64,000 nucleotides of DNA from Polyangiaceae bacterium (lineage in GTDB: Bacteria > Myxococcota_A > Polyangia > Polyangiales > Polyangiaceae), in the NCBI GenBank assembly GCA_036838085.1, contig DAITGX010000029.1:1-64000 (forward strand). The letters run 5' to 3'. The notes below the pieces were generated by a model that saw nothing but the letters and a program-made list of their open reading frames with translations, was not told the origin of the DNA and made no database searches. The stretch's first letter is position 1. The number at the start of each line of letters is the position of its first letter. Shown here piece by piece: positions 4,965 to 48,638 of the stretch. Made by a program: the position numbers and the translations under genes.

Positions 4965-6511
4965 AGGTCCACCACGCTGACATCGTCAACCTTGAACCGT
5001 TGCCCAACCTGGTTGATCGACGGTCGATAGTTGGGATTCGGAATACCGGTCGCGCTGAACGTGGAAGTATCCCCCACCCGAGACACGTTTCGGCAAGGGC
5101 CCGCCTTCGACATGTCTTTTTTGAAGTCCGGGTTACACGGCTGGTCCATCGTGATGAAGTGCGGCTGCACATACATATATCCCACGCCGAGTTGGAACTT
5201 CACATACTCGCCCGCCTGCCACGTCACGCTACCCGAAGCCCGAAACTTGCCATGGGCCTGCACATCCGTAAGCCCTGTGAAGTACACCTTCTGCGATGAT
5301 GGATTGACCACGGAAGGATAGGTTTGCGCCGTCGCAGGATCGGGATTGCGCTGGTACGAAGCGTAGTTGGGACGACGCAAAGACATCGCGTCGCTGGAGC
5401 CCAGGGCATCAAAAAGCTCACTATAATCGCGGCCTTCCGAACGATAGGCCCCTTCGACGCGCGCATCGAAGGTGAGCCGTTGGAACTGCTCCCGATTCTC
5501 CCAAGGAATGACCATCATCCCCATGACCATCCATCCTTCCAACGGCGGATGGTTGACCAACGATCCCTCCAGATCCATCAAACCATAATCGCTCTTGTCC
5601 GTGGGAAACTCGAATAGTGCCCGGAAACCACCGTACGGCTCCAGATACTTGATACGTCGCGAGACCAACGTATGCACTTCGATACCGGTGGTGCCACGAC
5701 TCACCCCCGCGGACCGCTCCCCCGCTTTCGTTCCCTCGAGTTGATACGTCTGCCCAGTATGATCCGTATACGCGTAATTACCCGCCGTCCCATCGCGATT
5801 GACGTCGGATGGATCTGCACAGGAAACCTGCTTGTTGCCTTGATTGCCCCCCCCCGCACCACAGGCATGCATCGGCTCACTGAGACTGAACCTTCCCTCG
5901 AAACCAAACAACCACGTGGGTTTCGTGGCATCCCGTGCCTGGTTCATGATGTTCACATCAAACCCTAGCGCGAGATACTCGATACCCGATCGGTCCGGAG
6001 ATTCGAAGGGCAGACGAAACAACTGCTCTCCCGGCATCCCCGCAAGCACGACGCTCTGCACCCGATCGCTTCCATCAAGACCCGACAACTTGCTCGAGTC
6101 ATTCAAGATGATCGGCATGCGAAGGTAAAGCGCGACATCCTTGTACAACCCCACATCCACCCGCGTGTTGAGCCTCGAAGTCGAGCCGGAATACTTCGCC
6201 ACGTTCATCGTGTCCGCCACGTATCCGCCCGACGACAATGAGCCTTGGTCAATCGAGGTTTCACGCACGATGTTGGCGTTCTTCCACATATGTTGATAGC
6301 CAAGGGTGAGGTGCAAATCGAAAAGGTCGTCGTCGTCGAAAGCGTCGACTACGGCCGTCACCTCACCAGGCTCGTTGAGTACGGGCCGTTCCGTTGCCTT
6401 ATACGGCTCGTCCGCATAACCGGGCGAAACACCAAAAAGCATCGCGAACGCAACGAGGGCCCCACATCCCACCGGCACCGAATAGAGCGATTTCGTGGCC
6501 ATTAAGCACAT
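4937..6511 (-). CDS. Outer-membrane beta-barrel protein (unknown family)
   Basis: Signal peptide (…ALVAFAMLFGVSPGYA). Alternating amphipathic beta-strand pattern. C-terminal …NGVVMF with terminal Phe, typical of OMP barrels. Start uncertain (M1 or M4). Confidence 0.55.
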   Translation of the reverse strand: MCLMATKSLYSVPVGCGALVAFAMLFGVSPGYADEPYKATERPVLNEPGEVTAVVDAFDDDDLFDLHLTLGYQHMWKNANIVRETSIDQGSLSSGGYVADTMNVAKYSGSTSRLNTRVDVGLYKDVALYLRMPIILNDSSKLSGLDGSDRVQSVVLAGMPGEQLFRLPFESPDRSGIEYLALGFDVNIMNQARDATKPTWLFGFEGRFSLSEPMHACGAGGGNQGNKQVSCADPSDVNRDGTAGNYAYTDHTGQTYQLEGTKAGERSAGVSRGTTGIEVHTLVSRRIKYLEPYGGFRALFEFPTDKSDYGLMDLEGSLVNHPPLEGWMVMGMMVIPWENREQFQRLTFDARVEGAYRSEGRDYSELFDALGSSDAMSLRRPNYASYQRNPDPATAQTYPSVVNPSSQKVYFTGLTDVQAHGKFRASGSVTWQAGEYVKFQLGVGYMYVQPHFITMDQPCNPDFKKDMSKAGPCRNVSRVGDTSTFSATGIPNPNYRPSINQVGQRFKVDDVSVVDLWLNGVVMF

Positions 6512-6686
6512 GTCCGTGTCGCGGACGGTAATGGCCTGGGTGATGGGATGTCAATGAATTACTCCCCGACGGGCCGATCCTTGGGTTTCCCCGAACGTCC
6601 GACGCTGGATTTCATGGCTTTGGATTCGAGGCTTGCCGAAGGGAAAAAGCGCGGTCGAACCTTTGGGGCAAGGGAGCGAGTCCCTT

Positions 6687-8060
6687 TCATTCCCTATCTC
6701 GGTTGATCGTATTCGGAATGGTGGGACGAGAATGAATGTCCTGCTCCTCCGCCGACACGGTGTCTTCGGACTGTTCATCGCGAAAAATATCCGCGGTGAT
6801 GTCCTCGATTTCCATTTCCTCCCGCGCCGTTCGCAAGTCTTTCGTGGTCCGATCCAACCGGTCGGCCAGAACACCGAGAAATTGCCAGAGCAATTTGACG
6901 GCCATCTCGTGCTCTTTTCGTAAAATATCAAAGAAATCCGTACGGTTAATCGCAATGATCTCGCTTTTGGTTTCGGCCATGACATCCGCGCTTCGGGGCT
7001 GGCTTCGAATCAACGCCATCTCCCCAAAATGCTCCCCCTGTCCCAAGGTCGACAATTCTGCATCGCCCTTGAACACTTTGACCTGACCCGACAGCATGAT
7101 GAAAAGCTCATCACCTCGATCCCCGTCCCGAATCACTTGTTGTCCTGGCTCGTAGGTTCGCACCTCCGCCACTTGCATCACTCGCATCAATTCACGCTCG
7201 GATAGCTTGCCGAACAACGGCATGCGCATCAACACCTCGCGCTTGAGCGCCAAACGCTGAGCACGCTGCGCTTCCATCGCCGTGCCCTCGCCCACCACCC
7301 GCACCAACACCACCGTGATATTGTCTTTTCCCCCTTTTTCATTGGCCATCGCGATGAGCGCTCGAGCCGCCTGCCCCTCCGGCATCGCAAGAGGTGCCTC
7401 GAGTTCTTGCATGCTATCGAGGTAGCCATGCAGCCCATCCGAACACAATACGAGCTGGTCGCCCGGCAGCAATTCGAACGATAGCGTGTCCACCTCTACC
7501 TGTTCGTAAACCCCCAACGCTCGCGTGATCGCATGTTTCTGCGCAACCTTCTCGATTTGATCCCGCGACAACTTACCCCGTTTGACCAGTTCGTTGAAAA
7601 CCGTATGGTCTTCCGTGATCTGACGCCCCTTGCCGTTTCGTACGAGATAGATCCGCGAATCGCCCACGTGAGCAATGAAACCCCGGTTCCCACACACCAA
7701 AAGAAGCGACAACGTCGTGCCCATTCCCCGTTTGGCCACATCCACTTGGGCCGCTTCATAGATGTGCTTGCACGCCTGCTGAACCGAATACTCCAGCAGG
7801 TTCAACACCCCCTTGACCGTCACCCGCGAAGCCCCTGAAGCTCCCGACAGAAAGTCGTCGAGCAACGTTCGCTCGCCTTTTATCTTCTCGTGAATCGTCC
7901 GAACCGCCAGCGCACTCGCTATCTCACCCGCCGCATGCCCCCCCATCCCGTCTGCCACCATGAACAACGATAATCCCTTGTCAACAAGGAAGTTGTCTTC
8001 ATTGTGGTCGCGTTTGCGTCCAACGTCCGTCTCGGCGTGAAACAGGATGTTCGTCCCCAT
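6687..8060 (-). CDS. PP2C-family Ser/Thr phosphatase fused to cyclic-nucleotide-binding (CAP-like) domain
   Basis: N-terminus [14 protein letters not shown]…[17 protein letters not shown] (PP2C motifs). C-terminus …[19 protein letters not shown]…[12 protein letters not shown]…RSADV (cNMP-binding signature). Confidence 0.85.
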
Positions 8061-8154
8061 GCCTCGTTCCGTCGTGTGATTGATAACCGACCATACTCAA
8101 TCGCCATGGTCGATGCGAGCCCTGGCGCACGTTGGCCCAACCCATCCGTGTCGC

Positions 8155-9165
8155 TCAAGCATCCATCCGCGGATTCGCCGACAGTCCAGACCGCTCCGGT
8201 TTGACGTTTCCAGTCGGTACGGCCCCTGGTCGACGCCCCGCCGCCAACGCTCGGAACTCTCGAAGTTCCTTGAGCAATGTCTCAATATTGACCTCGTTCT
8301 TCAAATTCACTTTGAAGTCCGTCTCCGCTTCCTTTCGATCCTTGGCTGCCTGTCGGTTCTGGCTCATCACGATGAGCGGCCCTTGCAACGCCACCAATAC
8401 CGCAAGCAATAAATTGAAAAATTGATAGGGATATTCGTCGGGCGCGTGCGAAAACACCACTCCAGGAATGTTGATGAGCACCCATCCTACCGTCAACCCC
8501 GATAGGATAAGGATGAACGACCAACTGCCATTCAACTCCGCCACCCGATCGGCCAGACGATCCGCCCAGCCCATCCCCTTTTCAAACTCCTCGATCACAT
8601 TGCGTGCCGCTCGCTCGCTCAACATCGCGTTGGTCTGACGCAACCTTTCGGACATTGTTCGTAAAATGGCCATCGCCGCCCGCGGACGACGTTCCAAGTA
8701 CGATGTCAACACGGTTCTTCCCAACTCCAAAAGCACCGTATCGGTCATGGCTTGGGCACTTGCACTCCGCGGCTTGTCGTCGAATAGCGCGACTTCCCCA
8801 AATACTTTTCCCACGGTCAAGTCCGCCAACGACACGCGCGTCGTTGGATCGCCCGGCAGATGAATATTCACCGTGCCCTCGGCGACAAGGTACATCGTAT
8901 CGCCCGCCTCCCCTGCTTCGAATACGACCTGGCCCGCCGAATAGCGTCGTTCCACGAGTTCCGCGGCGAGGTCCTCGACGTCCTGATCATCGAGCCCCTC
9001 GAACATCGGAATGCTTCGGAGCAGGTCAGCGGGGTTTTTCACGACCCGCTCAGTGTGGCGCGCCTTTCCCTCACTTGCAATACTTGCGATGGCGGAAGGC
9101 GACTCTCCCTTTCGTTCCTTGCCCAATGTGCTAGACGACGCGCGTGAACGAAGCCATTGCAGCAC
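8155..9165 (-). CDS. Cyclic-nucleotide-binding domain protein with C-terminal DUF1003 membrane domain
   Basis: cNMP-binding motif (…IPMFEGLDDQDVEDLAAEL…FGEVALFDDKPRSASAQA). C-terminus GSWSFILILSGLTVGWVLIN…YPYQFFNLLLAVLVALQGPLIVMSQNRQAAKDRKEAETDFKVNLKNE matches the DUF1003 consensus (SQNRQ…KDR…NL). Exact start (ATG 9165 or GTG ~9045) uncertain. Confidence 0.8.
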   Translation of the reverse strand: MLQWLRSRASSSTLGKERKGESPSAIASIASEGKARHTERVVKNPADLLRSIPMFEGLDDQDVEDLAAELVERRYSAGQVVFEAGEAGDTMYLVAEGTVNIHLPGDPTTRVSLADLTVGKVFGEVALFDDKPRSASAQAMTDTVLLELGRTVLTSYLERRPRAAMAILRTMSERLRQTNAMLSERAARNVIEEFEKGMGWADRLADRVAELNGSWSFILILSGLTVGWVLINIPGVVFSHAPDEYPYQFFNLLLAVLVALQGPLIVMSQNRQAAKDRKEAETDFKVNLKNEVNIETLLKELREFRALAAGRRPGAVPTGNVKPERSGLSANPRMDA

Positions 9166-10073
9166 AATGCGACGCTGCCTTTCTCATTCTCGACCATGCC
9201 GTCGCACGCGCCGAAGGGGCGCCCACCACCGCCCCCAACCTCCGCGTCACACCAGATTTTCCACTCGCTACACGCACCGCTCCTCAACAAGTGCGCCTCA
9301 GACTCGACCGCACGCTCATGGCCCCCGACCCGGAAAGCGGCCTCGATGCTCTGCTCGATTACGGTGTGCTCGACGCCCTGCTTCCGGAAGTCTCTGCCTT
9401 GGTCGGATTCGGGGATGGCGAATGGCGTCATAAAGACGTTTGGAAACATACGAAACAAGTCGTTCGACAAGCAGAAGCTCGCCTGTCCGTGCGCTGGGCT
9501 GCCCTTTTGCACGATGTGGGGAAAGTCAAAACACGAAGCATCAGCGCCGACGGCCAAGTTCATTTCTTTGGGCATGCGGAGTTGGGCGCACGCATGTTCG
9601 ACCGCATTGGAAAACGATTGGGATTTTTTGAGCCCCCCCTGCACCGAAGCATCCGCTTTCTCATCTTGCACCACCTTCGCGCCAACCAATACGAAAAGGA
9701 TTGGACCGATAGCGCGGTGCGCAGATTCGCACGGGAAATCGGCGCCGAACTCGATGACCTGTTGTGCCTCTCGCGCGCTGATATCACCACCAAACGCCCG
9801 GAGAAAAAACGCCGCGGGCTGCAGCAGATCGCAGAACTTTCTGAACGAATTCGCGAACTTGCCGTTCTCGACGCCCGCGTGCCTCCCCTGCCCTCCGGCG
9901 TCGGCAACGAAATCATGGACGCCTTCGGCATCCCCCCTTCACGCCTCATCGGCCAAATCAAACAAGCCCTGGAACAAGCCATCGAAGAAGGCGAACTGCC
10001 GGGTCACGAACCCTCCGCCTTCTACGTCGCCTTCCTCAAAGAAAACCGAACCCGATTCGGCCTGCCCGAATGA
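9144..10073 (+). CDS. Stand-alone HD-domain phosphohydrolase resembling the C-terminal HD/2',3'-cyclic phosphodiesterase half of class-II CCA-adding enzymes
   Basis: …LLPEVSALVGFGDGEWRHKDVWKHT…RWAALLHDVGK…FFGHAELGARMF…ILHHLR aligns with the E. coli Cca region [22 protein letters not shown]…ATLCHDLGK. No nucleotidyltransferase head domain is present upstream. Confidence 0.7.
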   Translation: MNEAIAAQCDAAFLILDHAVARAEGAPTTAPNLRVTPDFPLATRTAPQQVRLRLDRTLMAPDPESGLDALLDYGVLDALLPEVSALVGFGDGEWRHKDVWKHTKQVVRQAEARLSVRWAALLHDVGKVKTRSISADGQVHFFGHAELGARMFDRIGKRLGFFEPPLHRSIRFLILHHLRANQYEKDWTDSAVRRFAREIGAELDDLLCLSRADITTKRPEKKRRGLQQIAELSERIRELAVLDARVPPLPSGVGNEIMDAFGIPPSRLIGQIKQALEQAIEEGELPGHEPSAFYVAFLKENRTRFGLPE

Positions 10074-37088: not shown

Positions 37089-38417
37089 TCACACCCCGGA
37101 AAACTGCACTTCATGGAACCGCATCGAAGGGGTCCGTGCCCCACGATACGGGTATGGATCCGAACCAAGCTCCGCCAAGGCTTGCCAGAACGTGAGGTGG
37201 TTGCCCGCAAGATTCATTTCGGCCACGGGTTTGACGATACGCCCGGACTCCACCCAATGCCCCCGGATGCCAATCGAAAAATCACCCGTCGCTGCATTGG
37301 AATTGCCCCCGGAAAACCCCGTGACGAGGATTCCTCTTCCCATCGTGCGCAACAATCCCGCAAGATCTTGTTTTCCTTTGGGAAATACTAGATTGCTCGT
37401 CTCCCCGACCGTCGGCTCCCACCCCAATTTGGAAGCGTAATAGGTATCCAACAAATACGTTCGCAAAACTCCTTTTTCGAAAATCGGACGACGTCGGGTG
37501 CTCATCCCTTCGTAATCATACGTTCGAGAAGCCGCCCCCTTTGGCAGCAGAGGGTCATCGTCGATGTGAAGGAGGATCGACCCCACCTTTTCTCCGAGTT
37601 TACCCGACATATACGAGCGTTTTTGCTGCAAGGAGTTGCCCCCCAACGGCCCCAATAGCCCCCCGAGCAAACGATCCGCCACCCGGTTCTCAATGATACA
37701 AGGATACTTACCACTCTTCCAAGGGGTTTCTCCAATCCCCGCCAACGCCCTTCGCACCGCTTCTTTGCCCATGAGGTCCATCGAAGGAAGTTCGGCATAA
37801 TGATGAGTAGCAGCGTAGTCTCCCCCGGAAGGTTTTCGATCCCCTTCGCCTCGAACCGTAGCGGAAGCCGAGCGAGCGAAAACCGAAGATTCCCGCTCGC
37901 CTTTCGTGCCCTGACTATCCCTCATCGCGCTCATCGTGTGGTAGACACGCATCGCTCCCGTAGCCGAAAGGATGAGATCCGCGCCCTCGGCCTGCCGCAT
38001 CGCTCGTTCCAGCTCCATCGCCTGCTTTTTTTGCGCCGCACCGTCGATGACACCAAGATTGTCCCTGTCCAACAGCAGAAGATCGCCCTCAAACCTCTCT
38101 TGGCAGCGCTCCAAAGGGGGAAGCTTGCGATGGGGATCCGGCTGAAGCACCTTGGTCATCGCCACCGACTCGGCCACGAAAAGCTCCATGGCTTCCGGAC
38201 GCAAATCGCTTGTCGTGTGGGAAGAATAACGCCCATCGACAAATAAGGAGATGGAAAGGCCCTTGTGGACAGACTCACGCAAGCGGTCGAGCTTCCCATC
38301 GCGCCACTCCACACCACTTTCCCGCATGCGCCATACGCTTGCCCGCGCCGCCGCTGCGCCCTGCCGTTTCGCCAAAATAAGCGCATTTTCAACAAGTTGC
38401 ATAAGCGTCGCGTTCAT
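37089..38417 (-). CDS. pmbA: PmbA/TldE-family metallopeptidase (U62) partner subunit
   Basis: Start MNATLMQLVENALILAKRQGA…SVWRMRESGVEWRDGKLDRL…LSISLFVDGRY… Typical PmbA N-domain and C-terminal …GNSNAATGDFSIGIRGHWVESG… The ATG overlaps the tldD stop (ATGA). Confidence 0.8.
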   Translation of the reverse strand: MNATLMQLVENALILAKRQGAAAARASVWRMRESGVEWRDGKLDRLRESVHKGLSISLFVDGRYSSHTTSDLRPEAMELFVAESVAMTKVLQPDPHRKLPPLERCQERFEGDLLLLDRDNLGVIDGAAQKKQAMELERAMRQAEGADLILSATGAMRVYHTMSAMRDSQGTKGERESSVFARSASATVRGEGDRKPSGGDYAATHHYAELPSMDLMGKEAVRRALAGIGETPWKSGKYPCIIENRVADRLLGGLLGPLGGNSLQQKRSYMSGKLGEKVGSILLHIDDDPLLPKGAASRTYDYEGMSTRRRPIFEKGVLRTYLLDTYYASKLGWEPTVGETSNLVFPKGKQDLAGLLRTMGRGILVTGFSGGNSNAATGDFSIGIRGHWVESGRIVKPVAEMNLAGNHLTFWQALAELGSDPYPYRGARTPSMRFHEVQFSGV

Positions 38418-39988
38418 GCTCCCCTCCCACCCACGGAAATACCACTCACTTTTAAGGTCGGTAATCCAAAACCCACCGGAACGCCCTGCCCATCCTTGCC
38501 ACAATAGCCAGCCCCGGTGATATGCTTCAAATCGTTGCCGATCATCGCCACCTTCTCGAGAACGTTTGGGCCATTGCCGATGAGGTTCGCATCCTTGATC
38601 ACATGGGTCAGTTTCCCATCTTCGATGAGCCTTCCGTGTTTCAAATAGAAGGTAAAATCCCCGGCACCAATCATCACCTGTCCGTTGGTGAAGATCTCGG
38701 CGTAAATCCCCTTTTTGACGGAAGCGATGATCTCCTCCGGGCTTTCTTTCCCCGCAAGCATATAAGTGTTGCGCATTCGCGGCACCGGTGGATAACAATA
38801 GGATTCACGACGTCCCGAGCCTGTACGGGGCGCCTTGAAGTGCTGCGCTGAAATACGGTCGTGCAAATAGGTGCGTAATACGCCGTTTTCCACCAATACC
38901 GTCTCCTCGGTGGGATGCCCTTCATCGTCGATGTTGAGCGAACCACGCTGTCGTCCAGTGCCCCCATCCACGATGGTCACACCCTCCGGAGCGATTCTTT
39001 TTCCAATCCGGTTCGCATAAATCGAAATCCCCTTGCGATTGAAATCCGCTTCCATCCCGTGCCCAATGGCCTCGTGCAAGAGCAGTCCTGGATTTCCTGG
39101 CCCAAGGACGACCGGCATGTCTCCCACCGGCGGAGACACGGCTTCAAAAAGCAACACCGTATTGCGCGCTGCCGTGGTTCCCGTGTCGTCGATATGAGCT
39201 GGCGTGAGAAAACGAATCCCATCGCGCTGGGCGAAGGTCCAGTACCCCGTCTCAGTTTTTCCCTTGTTTTCTCCTACACAGGACACGGAAAGGACGCCCA
39301 TGGGCCGCTCGTCGGCGACCAGCAGCCCCTCGGAATTGGCGATCAGGATGTGGGAGGTCTCATCTTGAAGAGCCACCGTCACCTTGATGATTCGCGTATC
39401 ATGATTTCGCGCCGCTTTTTCCGCCCGCTGAACGATCGGAAGCTTGCGGTCGATGCCGACTTCGGTCCACGGCGTTTCCACGGTGTAGCGAGACACGACG
39501 ATACGAGGCGTGAGGGTTATCGAACGCGGGCTGGAAGGGCCATCGGCCACCGCGGAAGCCATGTCCGCGGCTTCGAGCAAGGCCCCGGGCGTCAGGTCCT
39601 CCGTAAATGAAAATCCGGTCGTATCCCCTTGAATCACGCGAATGCCCGCGCCAAGACCCACCTCGGAATAGGCCCTATTGACCTCGCCATCTTCCATACC
39701 CACCCAATGCGATACCCTGTGCTGCAAAAATATTTCCGAAAAAGAAGCCCCCCGCGACAACGCCCGGGATAATACCTTGCGTATCAATCCCTCATCGACA
39801 CCGAAAGCATCAAAATGACTCACGCTCACCGCTCCCGAATCCTTGCCCGGTTCCTGCAAACTCGGTGACTTGGAAGTCAAACGCTGGATTTCCGTGCGAC
39901 CACAACCCGCCACGAAAGGCAGCGATACGGTAGCCGCACCGTAGCCCATGACTTGCAATAAGTCCCTGCGATCCAGAGAAGTGGACAT
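38414..39988 (-). CDS. tldD: TldD-family metallopeptidase (U62) with twin-arginine (Tat) signal peptide
   Basis: N-terminal MSTSLDRRDLLQVMGYGAATVSLPFVAGC (S-RR-x-LL Tat motif + lipobox-like Cys). Conserved TldD core …GIRVIQGDTTGFSFT…, …LLHEAIGHGMEADF… (HExxxH-like metal site). Confidence 0.85.
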   Translation of the reverse strand: MSTSLDRRDLLQVMGYGAATVSLPFVAGCGRTEIQRLTSKSPSLQEPGKDSGAVSVSHFDAFGVDEGLIRKVLSRALSRGASFSEIFLQHRVSHWVGMEDGEVNRAYSEVGLGAGIRVIQGDTTGFSFTEDLTPGALLEAADMASAVADGPSSPRSITLTPRIVVSRYTVETPWTEVGIDRKLPIVQRAEKAARNHDTRIIKVTVALQDETSHILIANSEGLLVADERPMGVLSVSCVGENKGKTETGYWTFAQRDGIRFLTPAHIDDTGTTAARNTVLLFEAVSPPVGDMPVVLGPGNPGLLLHEAIGHGMEADFNRKGISIYANRIGKRIAPEGVTIVDGGTGRQRGSLNIDDEGHPTEETVLVENGVLRTYLHDRISAQHFKAPRTGSGRRESYCYPPVPRMRNTYMLAGKESPEEIIASVKKGIYAEIFTNGQVMIGAGDFTFYLKHGRLIEDGKLTHVIKDANLIGNGPNVLEKVAMIGNDLKHITGAGYCGKDGQGVPVGFGLPTLKVSGISVGGRGA

Positions 39989-40604: not shown

Positions 40605-42098
40605 ATGAAACGCGCGCTTTGCCTCGCGGCGCTCGTCATTGTCCCACCCGCTTGCGCCGCGGACCGCGAGAGCCACGTTTCCGCCGGAGCGACCAATCCT
40701 GTGCTCGACGCCAGCATCGACCCGGATGATGTTTCTGATTCCTATATTCCATGGGATGGTTCGCCCGAAGAGCCCACCCCAGTCGATGCTTCCGATGAAA
40801 TCGGCGGGGATTCATCGATCGACTCGTCTAAGGATGCCGGGGAGGAAAGCGCCATCGAGCCGTTCATCCCGGCCGAATTGCGGGTGGGGCTGATCCACAC
40901 CGGACCTTCCCCCCAGACGACACCTGCCACATGGAATGCCCACCTGCCGAAAATCGTGGGCGACGGCGCATTCTGGTATGCGGTCCATACCCATTATCCC
41001 CCCTCCGTAGCGGATCGTTATGCGGCAATCATGAGACGCGAGGCCGGAAGCGCCCTCCATGCTTGGGTGGAAGTTGCGCGTATCGCTTATCCGCATCAGT
41101 CCCCTGGGATCGTGATGGACATATCGCAGCGGCTGCACCTCATCTTCGATTGTATGCGCCCCGCCACGCAAGATGTGCTCTGTTTTCCAGGAGGAGCGGG
41201 GACGACGGGAAGAAACTCGCGATTCTACCACCTGATCTTCTCCACGCGGGATGGCAGCGGCGCGCTCCGTTTCGATACCTACAGCAACCATGACGAATGG
41301 ACCGCGGAGTCCAACGGCTACCAGGGAATCGCAACCACCACCGACGGGGTGACAGTATGGGCACTGGCCGACTCTGCCTGGGGACGTGTGGTACAGTGGT
41401 GGTACAGCGGTGCGCAATACGGCACCATCGGCACGTTGACAGCCGCCCCCGCATACCTGCTTTATCCAATCTTGACCGGACACCCGTCCCTCGGTTCTTC
41501 ACAACTCATCCTTTACGCCGGGGAGTTCGACCCCGCGGGGGGCAATAACGCAAGCTACCTCGCTTCCACCGCCTACGTTGGAAATACGTCGTCGCTGAGC
41601 CAATTATTCCGTCGTGCGCCAGCGCAACCCGTTCCAGGCATAGTCAGCGCCTATCCCTCGGACCTCGAACACGACGCGCAGGGCACGTTGTACGCGCTCT
41701 CCTATTTACCGAAAAGTGAAAAACAATGCACGGAACTCCTTCGCTTCGACAGCGAGCTCGCGCAGCCGCCCACGATCGTGCCAGTGGGATGCGTAAGCAA
41801 CTACGCCAAGCTCAAATTCGCTAGCCATGGAGCGCTATACCTGCTCGACGCCGGCCCCGGCGCGACTATATCCCTTGGCGTGAGCATGGACCGGGGCGAT
41901 AGCTGGACATGGCATTCGGTTCCCATCACGGGATTGCCATCCAACGGTGATATTCGCTACGTGGGATATACGCCGGTTAAGCCCTACACCTCGCCACTTA
42001 CGTACGAACCAAATCGATGGGTGGTGTTTTTCTCCGGACTCGATGAGTCGAACGGATCGGTGCATAGCTACGTCGGCGAGATGGATCTGGCGCCGTAA
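40605..42098 (+). CDS. Secreted BNR/Asp-box repeat (sialidase-like beta-propeller) protein
   Basis: Signal MKRALCLAALVIVPPACA. Asp-box SMDRGDSWTW (S-x-D-x-G-x-S-W) plus further …STRDGSGA…/…TTTDGVTVW… repeats. Acidic Ser/Asp-rich linker after the signal. Confidence 0.6.
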   Translation: MKRALCLAALVIVPPACAADRESHVSAGATNPVLDASIDPDDVSDSYIPWDGSPEEPTPVDASDEIGGDSSIDSSKDAGEESAIEPFIPAELRVGLIHTGPSPQTTPATWNAHLPKIVGDGAFWYAVHTHYPPSVADRYAAIMRREAGSALHAWVEVARIAYPHQSPGIVMDISQRLHLIFDCMRPATQDVLCFPGGAGTTGRNSRFYHLIFSTRDGSGALRFDTYSNHDEWTAESNGYQGIATTTDGVTVWALADSAWGRVVQWWYSGAQYGTIGTLTAAPAYLLYPILTGHPSLGSSQLILYAGEFDPAGGNNASYLASTAYVGNTSSLSQLFRRAPAQPVPGIVSAYPSDLEHDAQGTLYALSYLPKSEKQCTELLRFDSELAQPPTIVPVGCVSNYAKLKFASHGALYLLDAGPGATISLGVSMDRGDSWTWHSVPITGLPSNGDIRYVGYTPVKPYTSPLTYEPNRWVVFFSGLDESNGSVHSYVGEMDLAP

Positions 42099-42455
42099 TG
42101 CCCGGGCCGCGAACGGAAGCGTCGCGAGATGGCCACCCCCTCGACAGCAAGACCGCTGCCAAGCTCCAAAGCGCGAAGATTCATCCCATGATTTCCAAGG
42201 CAAGCCGCTCGTTTTTCAACATCCTCCTCAAGGCTCCCCCCAATATCCACCGCACTATCGCATAGACTACGATCCATGAAAGCTCGTCTCCCCCGCGCAC
42301 GAGCAGCCGGGATGTGACAAATCTGTCGTATCTCGCTCATTCCAATGTCCTTATCGGGACTGCTTCGCAGACCTCCCTGTCGAAAAACGTCCACCCGCGG
42401 TGCCATTATCACAGGACCATAGCAGGAAAGATCGCTGGAACTTACCCGCGTTGGC

Positions 42456-45400
42456 CTAGATACCGTACTCAGCGCGCTCGATCAGCTCGAGCTGCATCTG
42501 CTTGTTCAGCGTGACGAAATAGGCATTATACCCGGAAATCCGCACGAGCAAATTGCGATAGTTCTCCGGATGAACCATCGCGTCGCGAAGGGTATCGGAC
42601 GTGACTGCGTTGAGCTGCATTTGCATGCCCCCCAGCGAAAAATAGGACTTCACGTACGCGGCCATCGTGTCGACCGTCCGCTCCCGCGACTCATGGGCCG
42701 ATGGCACCACCTTCACATTGAAGGCAATATTGTTCGGCATATTGGCCGGATCCAACCTGGCCACATCACGGATATTGTCCAATAGGTTCGGCGATGCCCC
42801 CGGTGTGGGAGTCAGACCTGGCGTAAATGGCTTGCCCGCCAACCGCCCCGACGGCAAAGCTCCAGCCAGCGTGCCGTAAGATACATGCGTAGACATCGAC
42901 CAGAACCCAGCCGCATAACGGCCTCCCCGGTAGTTGGTATACCGATCATACAGCGACTGCACCATCTTGGTAATGCGGTTGCCCATCGCCACGGCGTCTT
43001 CGTTGCCCGAGCCAAAAAGCGCTACTTTGTGGGATACCTGCGCCAATAACAGCGGATCGTTGGCGAAATTCGTGTCCACTGCCCGCTTGAGGTCAGCGAA
43101 TGACACAACTCGTTGCTCGAATACGAGCTTCTGGATCACCAACATCGAATCGATGACGTCAACCAGCCCGATGCACGCAGCCCCAGAACTGTTGTACCTG
43201 GCTCCCCCATACGTAACATCCTTTCCCGATGCAATGGTGCCCTCGATCAGGCTGGACAGCAGTGGCGTCGGACGAAGCTGCTGATGCGCCTTACCCAACA
43301 TCTCGTTGTACTCGATCGATCGGTCGACCAGAAAAGCCACCTGCTGCCGGTAAGCCTCGAAAAACTGGTCGAAATTCGCAAAATCGCCAGCCTCGATCGA
43401 ACCGGTAGATGGTCCCACCTTCCAATCCATCAGCGGATGCCAGCCGTCGTTCAACGCCATCTCCAGCGCCGCCACCAGACTGAGCATCTGGAAATTGGTA
43501 TGGCCGATATGCTTTCCCGACAGCGTCGGCTCCACACACCCGGTCGCCGCCCAATCACGCACGTCACGTACCTCATAGCCATAGCGGCTCAAGGCCTTCC
43601 CCACGACCTCGTCGTTATGCAACGACGGAGTCGCCGCCGTGATCAGATTGACCTCGCAAAGACGCTTCAGGTACGCTTGGCTGTTTTTGCCCAGATGGAA
43701 TCTAGCGTTCACATTTGGGTCGCGAAGACTAAGGATTTCAGTGACTTTCAAGAATATATACGTCATATCGCAGACCGCGTCTTCGCCTTCGGGGGTCACC
43801 CCGCCCAGCGTGATCGCTTGATCCGAGGAACTGCCACCAAAGTAGTAGTTGGCCACGTCGGGAGTCAGCGGCAAGTGGTCCGTGCAGCGCAGCATCAAGT
43901 CACCCACCAGTTCAATCGCACGTTTGGTGTAGGCCCGCCGCTGCTCCAAAGTCTCCAACTTGCCCATATCGGCCTCGAAATATGGCTGCAGCCACTGGTC
44001 CAACCGGCCCATCGACAGCCCGGCATTGGTGCTTTCCATATGCAGCCCCACCCACGTGATCCACACCGAATTCACCGCCTCATCGAGCGTGCGGGCTGGC
44101 CCCACGACCACCTGGCTACAGATCTCGGCCAGTCGGCGCAACTCAGCCGCCCGACTGGGGTCGCTTTCCCGCTCCGCCTCATACGCCGCTTGCGCCGCCA
44201 AATGCCGAGAATAGGTGCCCAACCCCTCCAGCGCGAGAATGAATGCCCGCCGGGTGGTATTACGCTCCTCATCCGAGTCGGCAGCCATCGCTTCCTCGAT
44301 CTCGGCGATGATGCCGGACGTTCCCAGCCGCAACATCTTGGGGAAATCCGGGATCGTGTGTGAGATGGTTGCGGTTTTCCAGTCGAAATAGACCGCAAAT
44401 CGGTCGTCGATACGCTGGCCCAAAGGCGAACGGTAGTGGTCTCGCACCCATTCCTTGAAGTTGCGACGGCTCCAATAGGGGAATACATCCTTATGCAGCA
44501 ATTCTCGGGTCTCCTCCGAGACACCGTAAGGATTCAGAGGTCGATGCGGCACCGTCAGCAGCTCGCCCCAGATCATCGTCCCATGCCCCTCCGGATAGAC
44601 AACCACACCGGTTTCCTTGGTAGTTGTCGTGCCGGCAATGAGGTCGTTGGCATGGATGATCGGCCGACGATTCTCCATCACATATTGATAGGCCAGGGCT
44701 TTGCGCAGCACCGGGTGCCAGGGCTTGCCCTTCGAATCTCGCTCGAAACCGTGTTTTCGATGCCATTCGGTCAATAGTTTCGGCAATTCTGGGCATACCT
44801 CGGCGTCATGGTCGAGGTGCCGGTTCAAAAACTTAGCTAGCCGCGGGAAATCCTTCAAACTGAAATCACGCAAGTAGGGGTCCTCGAGATATTTCACACC
44901 CGGATCGACTTGCGAAGTCGCAATGCGGTAGTCCGCACGCTCGCGCATCTGCCGGGCCAGATCAGGATTCGTGGCACCGGCTTGTGTGCGACGATCAGCG
45001 TTATCGTTACGAAGATCTTTCGCCAGATTCTTGATTTGCTGGCGGAAAAGGAGTCGGGAAATCAGATATACGAACAGGTTTAGCGATGATGTATTGCCAT
45101 CGACGTAAAAGTCGTTGCGCAACGTCATGAGGACCTGCTCGGTTGGCGTGGCCGTGAGGAATTTCGTAACTTCAGCGTCGGATTTGAATACCAGCACGAC
45201 ATCGACGGCCTCGGGAATGCGGCCCATCGCCTTTGCTTTGCCATCTCGAAACCGGATTCCGGTGCGCACGGAGCCAGAGCGGGTGCGAATGCCGACCACA
45301 AGATCGATCCAACCGTCCTTGATACGCAATTCGTCACGCAACCTGGGGTGCCAGGTGTAGAGCTTGGCCATGAGACCGAGCAGCCCACGCACGATCAATT

Positions 45401-45563
45401 GTTGCGGACTGTGGCGCGCCGCATCGCTCACCGCCGGGTCCGGATGAAATGGGCGCATGTCCAGCGGGTCCACCGGGGGCAGCTTCACAGCGGTCGGTTC
45501 GGCCATGGTCATGGCATGCTCGGTTCCGGAAGAAGTGGACGAAGAGGTGTTGGGGAACGTCAT
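42456..45563 (-). CDS. Glycyl radical enzyme (PFL2/glycerol-dehydratase/CutC-like eliminase class) with ~200 aa N-terminal SCP2-like extension
   Basis: C-terminal glycyl-radical motif …LLVRISGYNAYFVTLNKQMQLELIERAEY (RISGY). Cys loop …ATGCVEPTLSGK (GCVE, as in glycerol dehydratase/CutC/HypD-type enzymes). 1035 aa. N-terminal …GRIPEAVDVVLVFKSDAEVTKFLTATPTEQVLMTLRNDFYVDGNTSSLNLFVYL resembles the SCP2 sterol-carrier fold. ATG overlaps the activase stop (ATGA). Confidence 0.9.
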   Translation of the reverse strand: MTFPNTSSSTSSGTEHAMTMAEPTAVKLPPVDPLDMRPFHPDPAVSDAARHSPQQLIVRGLLGLMAKLYTWHPRLRDELRIKDGWIDLVVGIRTRSGSVRTGIRFRDGKAKAMGRIPEAVDVVLVFKSDAEVTKFLTATPTEQVLMTLRNDFYVDGNTSSLNLFVYLISRLLFRQQIKNLAKDLRNDNADRRTQAGATNPDLARQMRERADYRIATSQVDPGVKYLEDPYLRDFSLKDFPRLAKFLNRHLDHDAEVCPELPKLLTEWHRKHGFERDSKGKPWHPVLRKALAYQYVMENRRPIIHANDLIAGTTTTKETGVVVYPEGHGTMIWGELLTVPHRPLNPYGVSEETRELLHKDVFPYWSRRNFKEWVRDHYRSPLGQRIDDRFAVYFDWKTATISHTIPDFPKMLRLGTSGIIAEIEEAMAADSDEERNTTRRAFILALEGLGTYSRHLAAQAAYEAERESDPSRAAELRRLAEICSQVVVGPARTLDEAVNSVWITWVGLHMESTNAGLSMGRLDQWLQPYFEADMGKLETLEQRRAYTKRAIELVGDLMLRCTDHLPLTPDVANYYFGGSSSDQAITLGGVTPEGEDAVCDMTYIFLKVTEILSLRDPNVNARFHLGKNSQAYLKRLCEVNLITAATPSLHNDEVVGKALSRYGYEVRDVRDWAATGCVEPTLSGKHIGHTNFQMLSLVAALEMALNDGWHPLMDWKVGPSTGSIEAGDFANFDQFFEAYRQQVAFLVDRSIEYNEMLGKAHQQLRPTPLLSSLIEGTIASGKDVTYGGARYNSSGAACIGLVDVIDSMLVIQKLVFEQRVVSFADLKRAVDTNFANDPLLLAQVSHKVALFGSGNEDAVAMGNRITKMVQSLYDRYTNYRGGRYAAGFWSMSTHVSYGTLAGALPSGRLAGKPFTPGLTPTPGASPNLLDNIRDVARLDPANMPNNIAFNVKVVPSAHESRERTVDTMAAYVKSYFSLGGMQMQLNAVTSDTLRDAMVHPENYRNLLVRISGYNAYFVTLNKQMQLELIERAEYGI

Positions 45564-46492
45564 ATCGCCTCCAGGCCGAGATCAACGAGATGTTGGCGCA
45601 GTCGGGCTGCCAGGCCGCGGGGCAGCCATGTCCGCATAATATCTAACTCAGTGAATTTGTTAGCAATTCCCAATTGAGGACCCTTGTCTACCCAGGTTGG
45701 ATTGTAATCCAGCAACCGGACTTGACGAACCCCCACATCGAGCAGAAATCGGCCGATCGCCGTCAGGTTTTCTTCCGTCGCGGTGATATCCGGGACCAGC
45801 GGAATGCGCGGCTGCAGATCGAACGTCCCGGCACGGGATAGCTCCACCAACCGCTTGAAATTGGCCAGGATCCGCTCGTTCGGCACCCCGCAATACGCAC
45901 GGTGGTCCTCGGAATCCATGAGTTTCAGGTCATAATAGATGGCGTTCAGATGCGGCAGCACCCCTCGTTCGAACGGCTCCCACCGAAAGTATCCGGCAGT
46001 CTCTAAAAGGGTGTGTATACCTTCGGCACGACAGGCCGCGGCAAGTTCCCCAAGCAGCTCCATCGCTAGAGTCGGCTCTCCCCCGGAAAAGGTGACGCCG
46101 CCTCCGGAGGCTTCATAAAAGGGCTTATCCGCGCGAAGCTTGGCCATCAACTCGGCGACGTTGGCTGGCTTACCCACCTGGCGCAAAGCCCCCGATGGAC
46201 AGACCGGTACGCAGTCGAAGCATCTGGTGCAGGCCCAACGATTGATGCCGACACCAGGCATGATGGCGTCCTCGGGGCAGTGGCCACGACATCGGGTACA
46301 GCCGGAAATACAATCCGCAACATTAAATGACAACTCAGCGTTTTGACTCAAACTTTCCGGGTTATGACACCATCGGCACGACAGCTTACAGCCCTTGAAA
46401 AAAACCACCGAGCGAATGCCCGGACCGTCGTCAAGCGCGTTGCCTTTCACCTCGAGCAGCAACGGTTCGTGCTTCGTCAGAATGGCCGTCAT
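45560..46492 (-). CDS. Glycyl-radical-enzyme activating enzyme (radical SAM) with extra ferredoxin-like Cys clusters
   Basis: N-terminal …GPGIRSVVFFKGCKLSCRWCHNPE (CX3CX2C). Two additional Cys clusters …CISGCTRCRGHCPE… / …CTRCFDCVPVCPSGA… typical of non-PFL activases. Confidence 0.9.
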   Translation of the reverse strand: MTAILTKHEPLLLEVKGNALDDGPGIRSVVFFKGCKLSCRWCHNPESLSQNAELSFNVADCISGCTRCRGHCPEDAIMPGVGINRWACTRCFDCVPVCPSGALRQVGKPANVAELMAKLRADKPFYEASGGGVTFSGGEPTLAMELLGELAAACRAEGIHTLLETAGYFRWEPFERGVLPHLNAIYYDLKLMDSEDHRAYCGVPNERILANFKRLVELSRAGTFDLQPRIPLVPDITATEENLTAIGRFLLDVGVRQVRLLDYNPTWVDKGPQLGIANKFTELDIMRTWLPRGLAARLRQHLVDLGLEAI

Positions 46493-46507
46493 CGCTGCTA
46501 TCCCTCC

Positions 46508-47188
46508 TCACTGCAGGGTTGGCTGCTCACGCGCAGCGGTGGGGTTCAGAGCGAGAATCTCATGGACAACGCTATTTTTGATCCGTGTGATCATGCGCTC
46601 TTTCAGAGAAGCCGGGTCAGGATGCATGTAGTCGATGAGGTGGTTGTGGATGCCTGCGATATAACCATGTAACTGCGTCCACAGGCGAACCGTGATGAAG
46701 TACAGGTCATCCCTTGCTGGCGGCGTGCCGGTGCAGGCAGCGATGGTAGTGGCAGTCAGGCGGAGACTGTCGAGCGCCGTCTCGAGTTCGACCCGAGCCG
46801 TGTTCTCCATCGCCGTGCCCACGTAGTCGTCATACTTGGGCACATGCCAGGTGAACATCAACCCGTATAGGTGTGTATTGTCGAAGGCAAACGTCACGTA
46901 GGCATCGATCAGCGCGTCGAGCCGTTCGAATGGGTTGGTATGGGGTTCGGCCGCTTTGGCAAGAGCCTGACCGAGGCTATGAAAGCCGCGGGTGAGCAGA
47001 CCGAGGTACAATTCGTCTTGGGAGGCGAAGTAGTTGTAGACCGTTTTCGCGGCGATGCCCAGGCGAGCGCCGAGTTTGCGCATGGAAAAACCTTGCCAAC
47101 CTGCCTCCACGAACAAGTTCAATGCCTCGTCCAAGATCTGGTTTCGCACGGCTTCGACCTCGTTTTCCGAACGACGGCGTCTTGGCAT
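46508..47188 (-). CDS. TetR-family transcriptional regulator
   Basis: HTH …FSMRKLGARLGIAAKTVYNYFASQDELYLGLL… 226 aa. Sits 15 bp upstream of the activase on the same strand. Confidence 0.85.
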   Translation of the reverse strand: MPRRRRSENEVEAVRNQILDEALNLFVEAGWQGFSMRKLGARLGIAAKTVYNYFASQDELYLGLLTRGFHSLGQALAKAAEPHTNPFERLDALIDAYVTFAFDNTHLYGLMFTWHVPKYDDYVGTAMENTARVELETALDSLRLTATTIAACTGTPPARDDLYFITVRLWTQLHGYIAGIHNHLIDYMHPDPASLKERMITRIKNSVVHEILALNPTAAREQPTLQ

Positions 47189-47702
47189 GGGGGCTCCTTC
47201 CGGTGCGGTTCGTGGATGTAATGCTGTTACAATAACACCGTTACCTTAACGTCGCAACCGACTGATCGGCATGTATTTCGGCTCTGAGCACGATTTTGGG
47301 AAGCCCCCTAACGCCGCGACTGTGCAAGCGCCGACTGCACGGGGCTGCCGCGTCTGCTACAACCCATATTATGCTGAATCGACGAACGTAAGCCGTGCGC
47401 GCCTTGGTTCGATGCGTTGGTGATTCGCCATCGCGTGAGCAGGGAAGCTGGAAGGACGGTTTTCCGCTGGAGGTGAGCGAGTGTTGATCTGATTTATCCG
47501 CTACGTGGCCCATCCCCCGCGGAACCACCTCCCCACAACCCATGGCCCTTCGAATCACCCCGATAGACCAACGTCAATACCACCCAATACACCGCCCTAA
47601 GCGTGTATATTGTTGTATTTATTATAGTTTATCAATACCCCGACGTTCGATGGAAACGACACGGTCACCGGAGCGGATTCTCTTGCTCTCTATTGATCGG
47701 AA

Positions 47703-48638
47703 TCAACTTCCGAACGCAATGAGTTCGCTTTTACGAGCTTTGCGGGAACGTCCGTCCTGGTCCACGATGAGCACTCCTTTGGCATCGATACTCTGCACCC
47801 GGTACAACTCCCACACCGACCCTTTTCTCGGACGAGCCAGAACCATTTGCCCCGGTTGCACATCCTGCGGCTTTTTCGGTTTCGGCGTGACCTCACGCGC
47901 TTCCCGGATCGAAAGCGGTGACTTATCGTCCCACGAAACATGCACGTTCGTGGGCGTGATGCGGCGAATCCTTCCTCCACGCCAGGAGCCGTCTTCGTGT
48001 CTTGCCACCACTTCATCGCCTGGTTTTGGCTCCCATCCCGGCGGTTGATACGGTCGTGTTTGCTGGTTCATGGCCGCGAAAAAATCTCTATGTTCGGACA
48101 ATTCCTTGTGTTTTTGACCGATCCGCCGCCGCGTCTCCTCCCGTAGCCCCACCACATCGCCCTCCGCTAGGTCATACGTCTTGCCCTGCGCATCTTCCAC
48201 CTCTACCCGTCCCGAAGCGACCTGCTTGATGAGACAGCCCACCCAGGTATCCGGGGCAGTTTTGCACGCCGCAAAATCGTTGATGGTTACCGCGGCCGCA
48301 CGAGAACCCAGCCCATACACCCGGTCGTCGGAAACCCTGATCTTCGTTTTTCGGCCGCCATATTCCACCGTGATCGGGTCGCCGTCCTTGACCACACGGC
48401 CTTGCACAAACTGCCCATCTTCTTTTTCCACCAACACATTCTCGCCCATTGACGGTCTCGAAGGTTGTTGCACCGGAGCAGGCGCCGACACCGTCGACGA
48501 CGCCGAGGCTACCCCTTGGTCGGATGGTTCACGATGGGAGCACCCCATCGAAGGAAGGAATGCCCAACCTAGCAAGAAACCAACCGCGAAACGCCACGCC
48601 ATGGGCGCCGACGATAGTGCAGGTTGCCCCAGAGGCAA
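47703..48638 (-). CDS. Hypothetical secreted lipoprotein
   Basis: MAWRFAVGFLLGWAFLPSMGCS signal. Repeated small beta-rich modules (…GRVVKDGDPITVEYGG…, …GKTYDLAEGDVVGL…, …GQMVLARPRKGSVWELYRV…) reminiscent of SH3/Tudor/KOW-like barrels. No firm family assignment. Confidence 0.5.
   Translation of the reverse strand: MPLGQPALSSAPMAWRFAVGFLLGWAFLPSMGCSHREPSDQGVASASSTVSAPAPVQQPSRPSMGENVLVEKEDGQFVQGRVVKDGDPITVEYGGRKTKIRVSDDRVYGLGSRAAAVTINDFAACKTAPDTWVGCLIKQVASGRVEVEDAQGKTYDLAEGDVVGLREETRRRIGQKHKELSEHRDFFAAMNQQTRPYQPPGWEPKPGDEVVARHEDGSWRGGRIRRITPTNVHVSWDDKSPLSIREAREVTPKPKKPQDVQPGQMVLARPRKGSVWELYRVQSIDAKGVLIVDQDGRSRKARKSELIAFGS

Follow-up and report, generated by a model that had tools for sequence, protein, structure and literature searches.

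A 64-kb stretch of DNA from a Polyangiaceae bacterium (contig DAITGX010000029.1, positions 1 to 64,000; hereafter, the window) carries a three-gene module encoding a TetR-family regulator, a glycyl-radical activase and an oxygen-sensitive glycyl radical enzyme (GRE) whose N-terminal extension is predicted to have the SCP2 lipid-carrier fold. The enzyme class is a known one, with a domain architecture that has not been described and a substrate class that is probably new, the substrate probably being a hydrophobic or lipid-like molecule. We favour the reading, which we give an even chance of being right, that the module represents an uncharacterized clade of GRE 1,2-eliminases or eliminase-like isomerases with an N-terminal SCP2-fold lipid-carrier domain, directed at amphiphiles. 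The features on which the argument draws are as follows, in window coordinates.

46508-47188, minus strand: TetR-family regulator, 226 aa (Pfam TetR_N and TetR_C_33)
45560-46492, minus strand: glycyl-radical activase, 310 aa (radical-SAM CX3CX2C motif and two-cluster ferredoxin-like insert; TIGR02494)
42456-45563, minus strand: GRE, 1035 aa, or 1016 aa if the start is Met20 (pyruvate formate-lyase (PFL)-like and Gly_radical)
45051-45407, minus strand: predicted SCP2-fold N-terminal domain, GRE residues ~53-171
44814-45047, minus strand: GRE linker, residues 173-250 (conservation and predicted secondary structure)
42873-44819, minus strand: PFL-like catalytic barrel, GRE residues 249-897 (Pfam PF02901)
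42513-42827, minus strand: glycyl radical domain, GRE residues 913-1017 (Pfam PF01228)
47218-47244, no strand assigned: candidate TetR operator, two tandem palindrome copies (pattern scan)

The N-terminal SCP2-fold domain and its distribution

Solved GREs align to the window enzyme only from about residue 270, which shows that its N-terminal excess of around 240 residues is real. We modelled residues 45-250 with AlphaFold2 on a 28-sequence alignment (mean predicted local distance difference test (pLDDT) score 82.6, above 90 across the globular part). The model has helices (H) and strands (E) in the order H-H-E-E-E-E-H-H-E-H, in keeping with the N-terminal helices, five-stranded sheet and C-terminal helix over a cavity that characterize SCP2 proteins, and a full-length prediction gave the same elements. 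Foldseek returned 25 matches to this model at E ≤ 0.001, every one an SCP2-fold protein or domain, the best being UbiJ-SCP2 (E 1.6e-6; template modelling (TM) score 0.71 on the target); in all, two independent structure searches found the fold. At the sequence level, 8 of the 28 homologues weakly matched Pfam SCP2 (PF02036; best E 0.0025), and no other Pfam family was matched by more than one of them. The window GRE itself fell below the PF02036 gathering score, its residues 1-252 having no Pfam match, and a profile of the domain found nothing among PDB sequences. We regard the assignment as firm at the level of the predicted fold and, because the window sequence lies under the Pfam threshold and the profile has no PDB sequence match, as a remote but recurrent signal at the level of sequence. 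A first-pass annotation of the window had proposed an SCP2-like extension; the structure searches and the recurrent Pfam signal bear this out, and nothing in the profile or structure searches pointed to a region unlike SCP2. Lipid binding by the domain is putative, suggested by its fold and by the gene neighbourhood described below.

Between this domain and the barrel, the linker runs through a long, charged helix and a stretch of low model confidence to a conserved DPGVxYLxDPYL...DFPR motif that enters the barrel. Archaeoglobus fulgidus is the source both of the closest solved GRE (2f3o, PFL2) and of one of the two closest solved SCP2 structures (3bn8, AF1534); these are separate proteins in that organism, and their shared origin is probably a coincidence.

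Several known proteins resemble parts of this arrangement. UbiJ- and UbiT-type SCP2 proteins and the eukaryotic SCP2, MFE-2 and SCPx have the same fold and carry isoprenoid or acyl lipids to enzymes, but none is fused to a radical enzyme, and no similarity to the N-terminal domain was detectable by profile among PDB sequences. The alkylsulfatases SdsA1, Pisa1 and YjcS pair a catalytic domain with an SCP2-like domain, although there the SCP2 domain is C-terminal and, unlike the window GRE, the catalytic domain has a metallo-β-lactamase fold and hydrolytic, oxygen-tolerant chemistry. The alkylsulfatase SCP2 domain recruits the alkyl chain, and in known enzyme–SCP2 fusions (alkylsulfatases and MFE-2/SCPx) the domain serves hydrophobic substrates. 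Long-form CutC (9F3W, 1150 aa), like the window GRE, is a GRE eliminase whose N terminus is greatly extended, but that extension is not SCP2, and part of it gives a weak alignment (20 bits) with residues 405-543 of the GRE barrel.

Relatives with the same architecture were numerous. A full-length search recovered at least 421 clusters at 90% identity, of proteins about 1000 aa long; among the 120 matches listed, identity was 60-84% over about 95% of the length. A one-genome-per-species scan with full-length alignment yielded 580 stretches encoding a relative, that is, up to about 580 species genomes, and we inspected the best 80, in all of which (80/80) the N-terminal domain was covered. These 80 came from Desulfobacterales, Smithella and other Syntrophales, Desulfatibacillum alkenivorans DSM 16219 and Desulfosudis oleivorans, and further from Spirochaetota and Leptospirales, Actinomycetota, Chloroflexota, Vicinamibacteraceae, Myxococcota and SAR324. 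The phyla with relatives are Thermodesulfobacteriota, Spirochaetota, Actinomycetota, Chloroflexota, Acidobacteriota and Myxococcota. When the domain profile was run against 1.84 billion representative sequences, it gave 268 matches down to about 40% identity, which were N termini of ~1000-aa GREs or short metagenomic pieces; most of these pieces were collinear with the GRE and a few had unmatched tails, and among the 1.84 billion the domain was not clearly seen in any other protein architecture. Every full-length (~1000-aa) relative conserves the domain. Judged by these sequence comparisons, the SCP2–GRE fusion defines a deep, cross-phylum clade in anaerobes, whose members are named only 'pyruvate formate lyase family' or 'formate acetyltransferase' in databases. 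The fusion had been put forward as novel in the first-pass annotation: it is indeed undescribed in the literature we searched, but it is not peculiar to one genome, a large cross-phylum clade being already present in databases.

We found no GRE linked to an SCP2, sterol carrier or lipid-binding domain in the full-text literature, a June 2026 superfamily review included (InterPro, Gene3D and AlphaFold-DB lay outside this search). According to that review, whole GRE clades are still without an assigned function, and no lipid-directed or SCP2-fused member appears in it (PMC13450708). Literature searches combining glycyl radicals with ether lipids, hopanoids or sphingolipids gave nothing relevant, and none found relevant expression data for Desulfatibacillum or strain Hxd3. 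A paper on a limonene GRE concerns a succinate synthase, outside the SCP2–GRE clade.

Catalytic machinery and family membership

Beyond the extension, the protein has the hallmarks of the GRE superfamily: a PFL-like barrel (PF02901, 515 bits), a glycyl radical domain (PF01228, 81 bits) with a C-terminal motif of the RVxG[FWY] type, and a dedicated radical-SAM activase gene next to its own. Translation places the motif, RISGY, at residues 1008-1012 (Gly1011; nt 42528-42542) and the Cys loop, GCVE, at residues 675-678 (nt 43530-43541), as the first-pass annotation had read them. GCVE is invariant in 23 family members. The Cys-x-Glu motif defines GRE eliminases and isomerases (PMC13450708), and its presence places the window GRE with the 1,2-eliminase/isomerase class, in line with the eliminase-type loop originally proposed.

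Membership of any characterized family was not supported by profile scores, with the catalytic domain under every curated NCBIfam cut-off tested. The scores were 500 bits against a cut-off of 678 for PFL2-3, glycerol/propanediol dehydratase (TIGR01774); 367 against 1050 for CutC (TIGR04394); 356 against 1100 for HypD; 340 and 338 against 1000 for the DHPS enzymes HpsG and HpfG; among aryl-acetate decarboxylases, 259 against 1100 for indoleacetate decarboxylase and 173 against 1150 for HPAD; and 108 against 994 for PFL (TIGR01255). The specificity-residue sets of these families failed as well, and the catalytic domain stands outside the characterized families; no test placed it inside one. The database names would make the protein a genuine pyruvate formate-lyase (formate C-acetyltransferase), and they are all that speaks for this identity, the probability of which we put at next to nil. 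The TIGR01255 score, the alignment of PFL 1h16 over the C-terminal 170 residues only and the single loop cysteine of GCVE, as against the Cys-Cys pair of PFL, refute it, and on these sequence features the name 'formate acetyltransferase' is wrong.

Among solved structures, the best relatives were A. fulgidus PFL2 (375 bits), glycerol dehydratase (356) and propanediol dehydratase (355), followed by CutC (~330-344), YbiW/PflD (246-318), MasD (185), TutD (157) and PFL (95). A. fulgidus PFL2 (2F3O) shares the GCVE loop and the active-site His with the window GRE and likewise has no assigned function, but it is a 776-aa archaeal protein without an SCP2 domain, and its alignment starts at window GRE residue 276. 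Its function is debated between glycerol dehydratase and MASS (PMC13450708), which raises the alternative that the window enzyme is a hydrocarbon-activating or other C–C bond-forming GRE, like the alkylsuccinate synthase that PFL2 has been proposed to be, with the SCP2 domain delivering alkanes or alkenes. The ranking of PFL2 as closest solved structure fits this alternative, as does the occurrence of the clade in the known hydrocarbon degraders Smithella, D. alkenivorans and D. oleivorans. We nonetheless consider it very unlikely. MasD and TutD score far under the eliminases (330-375), and the Cys-x-Glu loop and His are eliminase-type; no genes for small β, γ or δ subunits occur in the conserved neighbourhood of the 80 inspected loci (crude ORF calling with a 70-aa minimum, followed by clustering), so that neither similarity nor small-subunit genes place the enzyme with the X-succinate synthases (BSS/MASS); and lineages not known for hydrocarbon use (Spirochaetota, Actinomycetota, Acidobacteriota and Myxococcota) have the clade just as commonly.

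The glycerol and propanediol dehydratases (1R8W and 5I2A) offer the closest functional comparison. With the window GRE they share a PFL-like barrel, both the Gly and the Cys-x-Glu loops and a His at the position of glycerol dehydratase (GD) His164, and their activase belongs to the same type, its ferredoxin-like insert included; unlike the window GRE, they lack an N-terminal SCP2 domain. We mapped residues through an alignment to GD 1r8w, in which the GD numbering reproduces the Cys433, Glu435 and His164 of the literature. The equivalences were as follows.

GD Cys433: Cys676 of the window GRE
GD Glu435: Glu678
GD His164: His402 (nt 44358-44360)
GD His281/Ser282: Ala514/Gly515 (nt 44019-44024)
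GD Asp447: Asn690 (nt 43494-43496)
GD Tyr339: Asp581 (nt 43821-43823)
GD Tyr640: Trp888 (nt 42900-42902)

Across 23 family members, every mapped window residue shows little or no variation; the same holds for an unusual GGSSS(D)Q motif (residues 576-582), and His402 is invariant in the members compared. In GD, the leaving hydroxyl receives its proton from His164, and Glu435 takes the proton of the carbinol (PMC13450708). Among the GD diol-binding residues, only His164 is kept, as His402, whereas the contact residues His281/Ser282, Asp447 and Tyr640 are replaced. Because GCVE and His402 are retained while these contacts are not, the GRE appears to have eliminase machinery for an oxygen leaving group within a differing binding pocket that has two small residues; the small Ala514-Gly515 pair in place of GD His281-Ser282 would fit a larger substrate. 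CutC differs at the His402 position, where the alignment places its trimethylammonium-binding Asp. YbiW and PflD, the 1,5-anhydrohexitol-6-phosphate ring-opening isomerases, share the Cys-x-Glu loop and cleave a C–O bond next to a ketyl radical, but they act on sugar phosphates, lack an SCP2 domain and give lower scores.

Activase, regulator and gene neighbourhood

The three minus-strand genes are closely packed. A 15-nt gap with GGAGG inside it separates the TetR stop from the activase start, and the activase and GRE genes overlap by their stop and start codons in an ATGA that has a GGAGG 4 nt before it; the layout given in the first-pass annotation agrees exactly with the ORF coordinates, and its operon-like character is supported by the recurrence of the same three genes together in other phyla. 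An identical NCBI protein, 'pyruvate formate lyase family protein' from a Polyangiaceae metagenome-assembled genome (MAG), fits the Myxococcota-like origin that had been suggested; this 1016-aa record begins at Met20. GRE residues 1-48 are unconserved and disordered in predicted models, and homologues align from about residue 45-55. Given the shorter record and the unconserved N terminus, the exact start codon (window 45507-45563) is uncertain, with the Shine-Dalgarno sequence and ATGA coupling favouring the long form.

The activase scored 247 bits against the TIGR02494 cut-off of 174. By translation, it carries the Cys motif C35x3C39x2C42 and two further four-Cys motifs, C61/65/68/72 and C88/91/94/98, which correspond to the two extra ferredoxin-type clusters noted earlier. 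An activase homologue was detected by tblastn in 71 of 84 fetched loci, and by crude ORF calling and clustering it adjoins the GRE in at least 55 of the 80 loci.

The regulator has the helix-turn-helix and ligand domains of a TetR-family repressor (TetR_N and TetR_C_33, 44 bits each) and a palindromic candidate operator ahead of its own gene. This consists of tandem GTAAC-N3-GTTAC copies with one mismatch each (47218-47230 and 47232-47244), located 30-56 nt before the TetR start; with up to one mismatch allowed, these were the only two matches in the window, against 0.34 expected by chance. The pattern occurred exactly 10 times in 1.3 Mb of related loci, and 7 of the 10 matches lie 30-208 nt upstream of a TetR homologue. 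The seven loci, from Actinomycetes, Desulfobacterales, D. alkenivorans and D. oleivorans, share the TetR-activase-GRE order of the window. Loci ordered TetR-GRE-activase mostly have no such palindrome within 230 nt upstream of TetR (one, L059, has a near-match), and may therefore use another operator. On the strength of these sequence patterns, GTAAC-N3-GTTAC is a good candidate for the TetR operator. The palindrome, with its 5-nt arms, came from the pattern scan; an inverted-repeat search with a seed of 6 found nothing upstream of TetR, and scans for sigma-70 promoters and terminators did no better than on shuffled sequence. The nearest solved or curated relatives of the regulator were weak matches to lipid-sensor types, namely 6o6n/6o6p (40 bits), KstR, Mce3R and FadR-type proteins; 6o6n/6o6p we take to be FasR, which senses acyl-CoA. 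Fold and gene neighbourhood suggest that a lipid-like ligand may act as inducer.

TetR lies upstream of the GRE on the same strand in 36 of the 80 loci, with a homologue in 41 of the 84 searched by tblastn, and one or two short-chain dehydrogenase/reductase (SDR) genes directly adjoin the module on the same strand in 25 of the 80. A recurrent order, typified by Smithella, is TetR-GRE-activase-extended SDR-classical SDR-DUF362/Fer4. The best NCBIfam matches of the extended SDR, all sub-threshold, were HpnA (hopanoid-associated), OleD (2-alkyl-3-oxoalkanoate reductase) and SdmB (sterol demethylation); against the PDB, the neighbouring SDRs gave only generic SDR matches. Other genes near the GRE encode a long-chain-fatty-acid-CoA ligase (8 loci), an aldehyde:ferredoxin oxidoreductase (5 loci), an acyl-CoA dehydrogenase-like protein (4 loci) and, in one Desulfobacterales genome, a sulfatase. 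In D. alkenivorans DSM 16219 (L053, 8985-17320), TetR-activase-GRE-SDR is followed by a phospholipase A1 gene, on the opposite strand, and by a long-chain-fatty-acid-CoA ligase gene; this strain is a cultured carrier and the most accessible organism for experiments. The Chloroflexota loci L036 and L079 carry a second, 838-aa GRE with its own activase directly beside the SCP2-GRE/activase pair, and the two GREs could be paralogues acting in one pathway.

A different setting occurs in Smithellaceae (L002 and L021, from the same contig; 3827-9850), where the GRE is preceded by a thiamine diphosphate (ThDP) enzyme, a zinc-dependent alcohol dehydrogenase (Zn-ADH), a class-III aminotransferase and an amino-acid permease; some ORF families of this locus, identified only in part, are found again close to the GRE in a few loci of Actinomycetota. 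By analogy with the logic that leads from taurine through isethionate to a GRE, this arrangement hints at an amine-derived substrate in that subgroup.

The flanks of the module in the window hold PolA, a Ser/Thr kinase, a TldD/PmbA pair and ORFs without a family match, all unrelated to the module. The pair comprises two successive TldD/PmbA-family metallopeptidase ORFs (37089-39988, minus strand) that overlap by 385 nt as listed (38414-38798), so that the TTG start of the downstream one has probably been called too far upstream. Flanking ORFs at 40605-42098 (plus), 42068-42412 (minus), 47241-47558 (minus) and 47542-48048 (plus) have no Pfam match, among them a 497-aa ORF that converges on the GRE, and a 311-aa ORF (47703-48638) has only a weak cupin match. 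By tblastn, none of these five ORFs has a counterpart beside the GRE in related loci, nor does any other of the window's own flanking genes recur there.

Proposed mechanism, alternatives and implications

In the favoured reading, the activase would install the radical on Gly1011, and Cys676 would then abstract a hydrogen atom from a carbinol carbon in the polar head of the substrate. Glu678 would deprotonate the carbinol hydroxyl and His402 would protonate the vicinal oxygen leaving group (hydroxyl or alkoxy), giving an aldehyde or ketone. The SCP2 domain would hold or extract the hydrophobic tail of the amphiphile and feed its head group to the buried active site; candidate substrates are a long-chain vicinal diol and a monoalkyl- or monoacyl-glycerol-type lipid. 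TetR, bound to the GTAAC-N3-GTTAC sites, would keep the operon repressed as long as it has no lipid-like ligand. Fatty-acid catabolism would take up the carbonyl or alcohol product, which in other genomes the SDRs, aldehyde:ferredoxin oxidoreductase and long-chain acyl-CoA ligase would lead into β-oxidation. YbiW and PflD provide a precedent for C–O (ether) cleavage by a GRE (PMC13450708).

Several points weigh against this reading. No lipid-metabolism gene flanks the module within the window, and beyond the activase, TetR and SDRs, neighbours differ widely between genomes. The full-length AlphaFold2 model has pLDDT below 50 at the Cys and Gly loops of the barrel core, a consequence of a shallow alignment (23 close sequences), and was not used to orient the SCP2 domain relative to the substrate channel. 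Finally, the invariant pocket residues are polar (GGSSSDQ and Asn690), so that only a head group could occupy the active site.

The polar pocket would also suit an eliminase for a small polar metabolite (a diol, amino alcohol or polyol), in which the SCP2 domain would serve in oligomerization, tethering to a membrane or partner, stabilization or control of activation. SCP2-like folds do act as structural domains in Eis and GNAT proteins, and the L002 neighbours (amino-acid permease, class-III aminotransferase, Zn-ADH and ThDP enzyme) resemble those of taurine/isethionate-type pathways. We regard this alternative as credible but rather unlikely: the SCP2 domain is strictly conserved across a deep clade and retains an SCP2 sequence signal, lipid-type neighbours recur (acyl-CoA ligase, aldehyde:ferredoxin oxidoreductase, phospholipase A1 and the OleD/HpnA-like SDR), and SCP2 serves hydrophobic substrates in known enzyme fusions.

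A bolder version of the amphiphile-directed reading, which we hold to be a long shot, is that the enzyme is the first lipid-directed GRE and cleaves or dehydrates a membrane-lipid head group by radical chemistry that needs no O2. It might, for example, convert a 1-O-alkylglycerol ether lipid to a fatty alcohol and hydroxyacetone, by analogy with HpsG and YbiW/PflD, or dehydrate a long-chain vicinal diol to a fatty aldehyde. Two papers describe AGMO, an O2-dependent monooxygenase, as the sole enzyme known to cut the ether bond of alkylglycerols (PMC9192799, PMC7911779). If true, the proposal would supply a route for ether- or diol-lipid degradation in anoxic sediments.

Apart from the hydrocarbon-adding succinate synthases, all characterized PFL-like GREs act on small water-soluble metabolites (PMC13450708), and a built-in lipid-carrier domain in a widespread clade suggests a substrate class that is new for radical eliminases. 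The analysis corrects a systematic misannotation as 'formate acetyltransferase' and defines a compact, testable module of regulator, candidate operator, activase and enzyme. For the Polyangiaceae MAG that is its source, the module indicates a capacity for strictly anoxic radical chemistry. More broadly, the activity would be an unrecognized step in the anaerobic turnover of lipids and amphiphiles in sediments, digesters and the subsurface.

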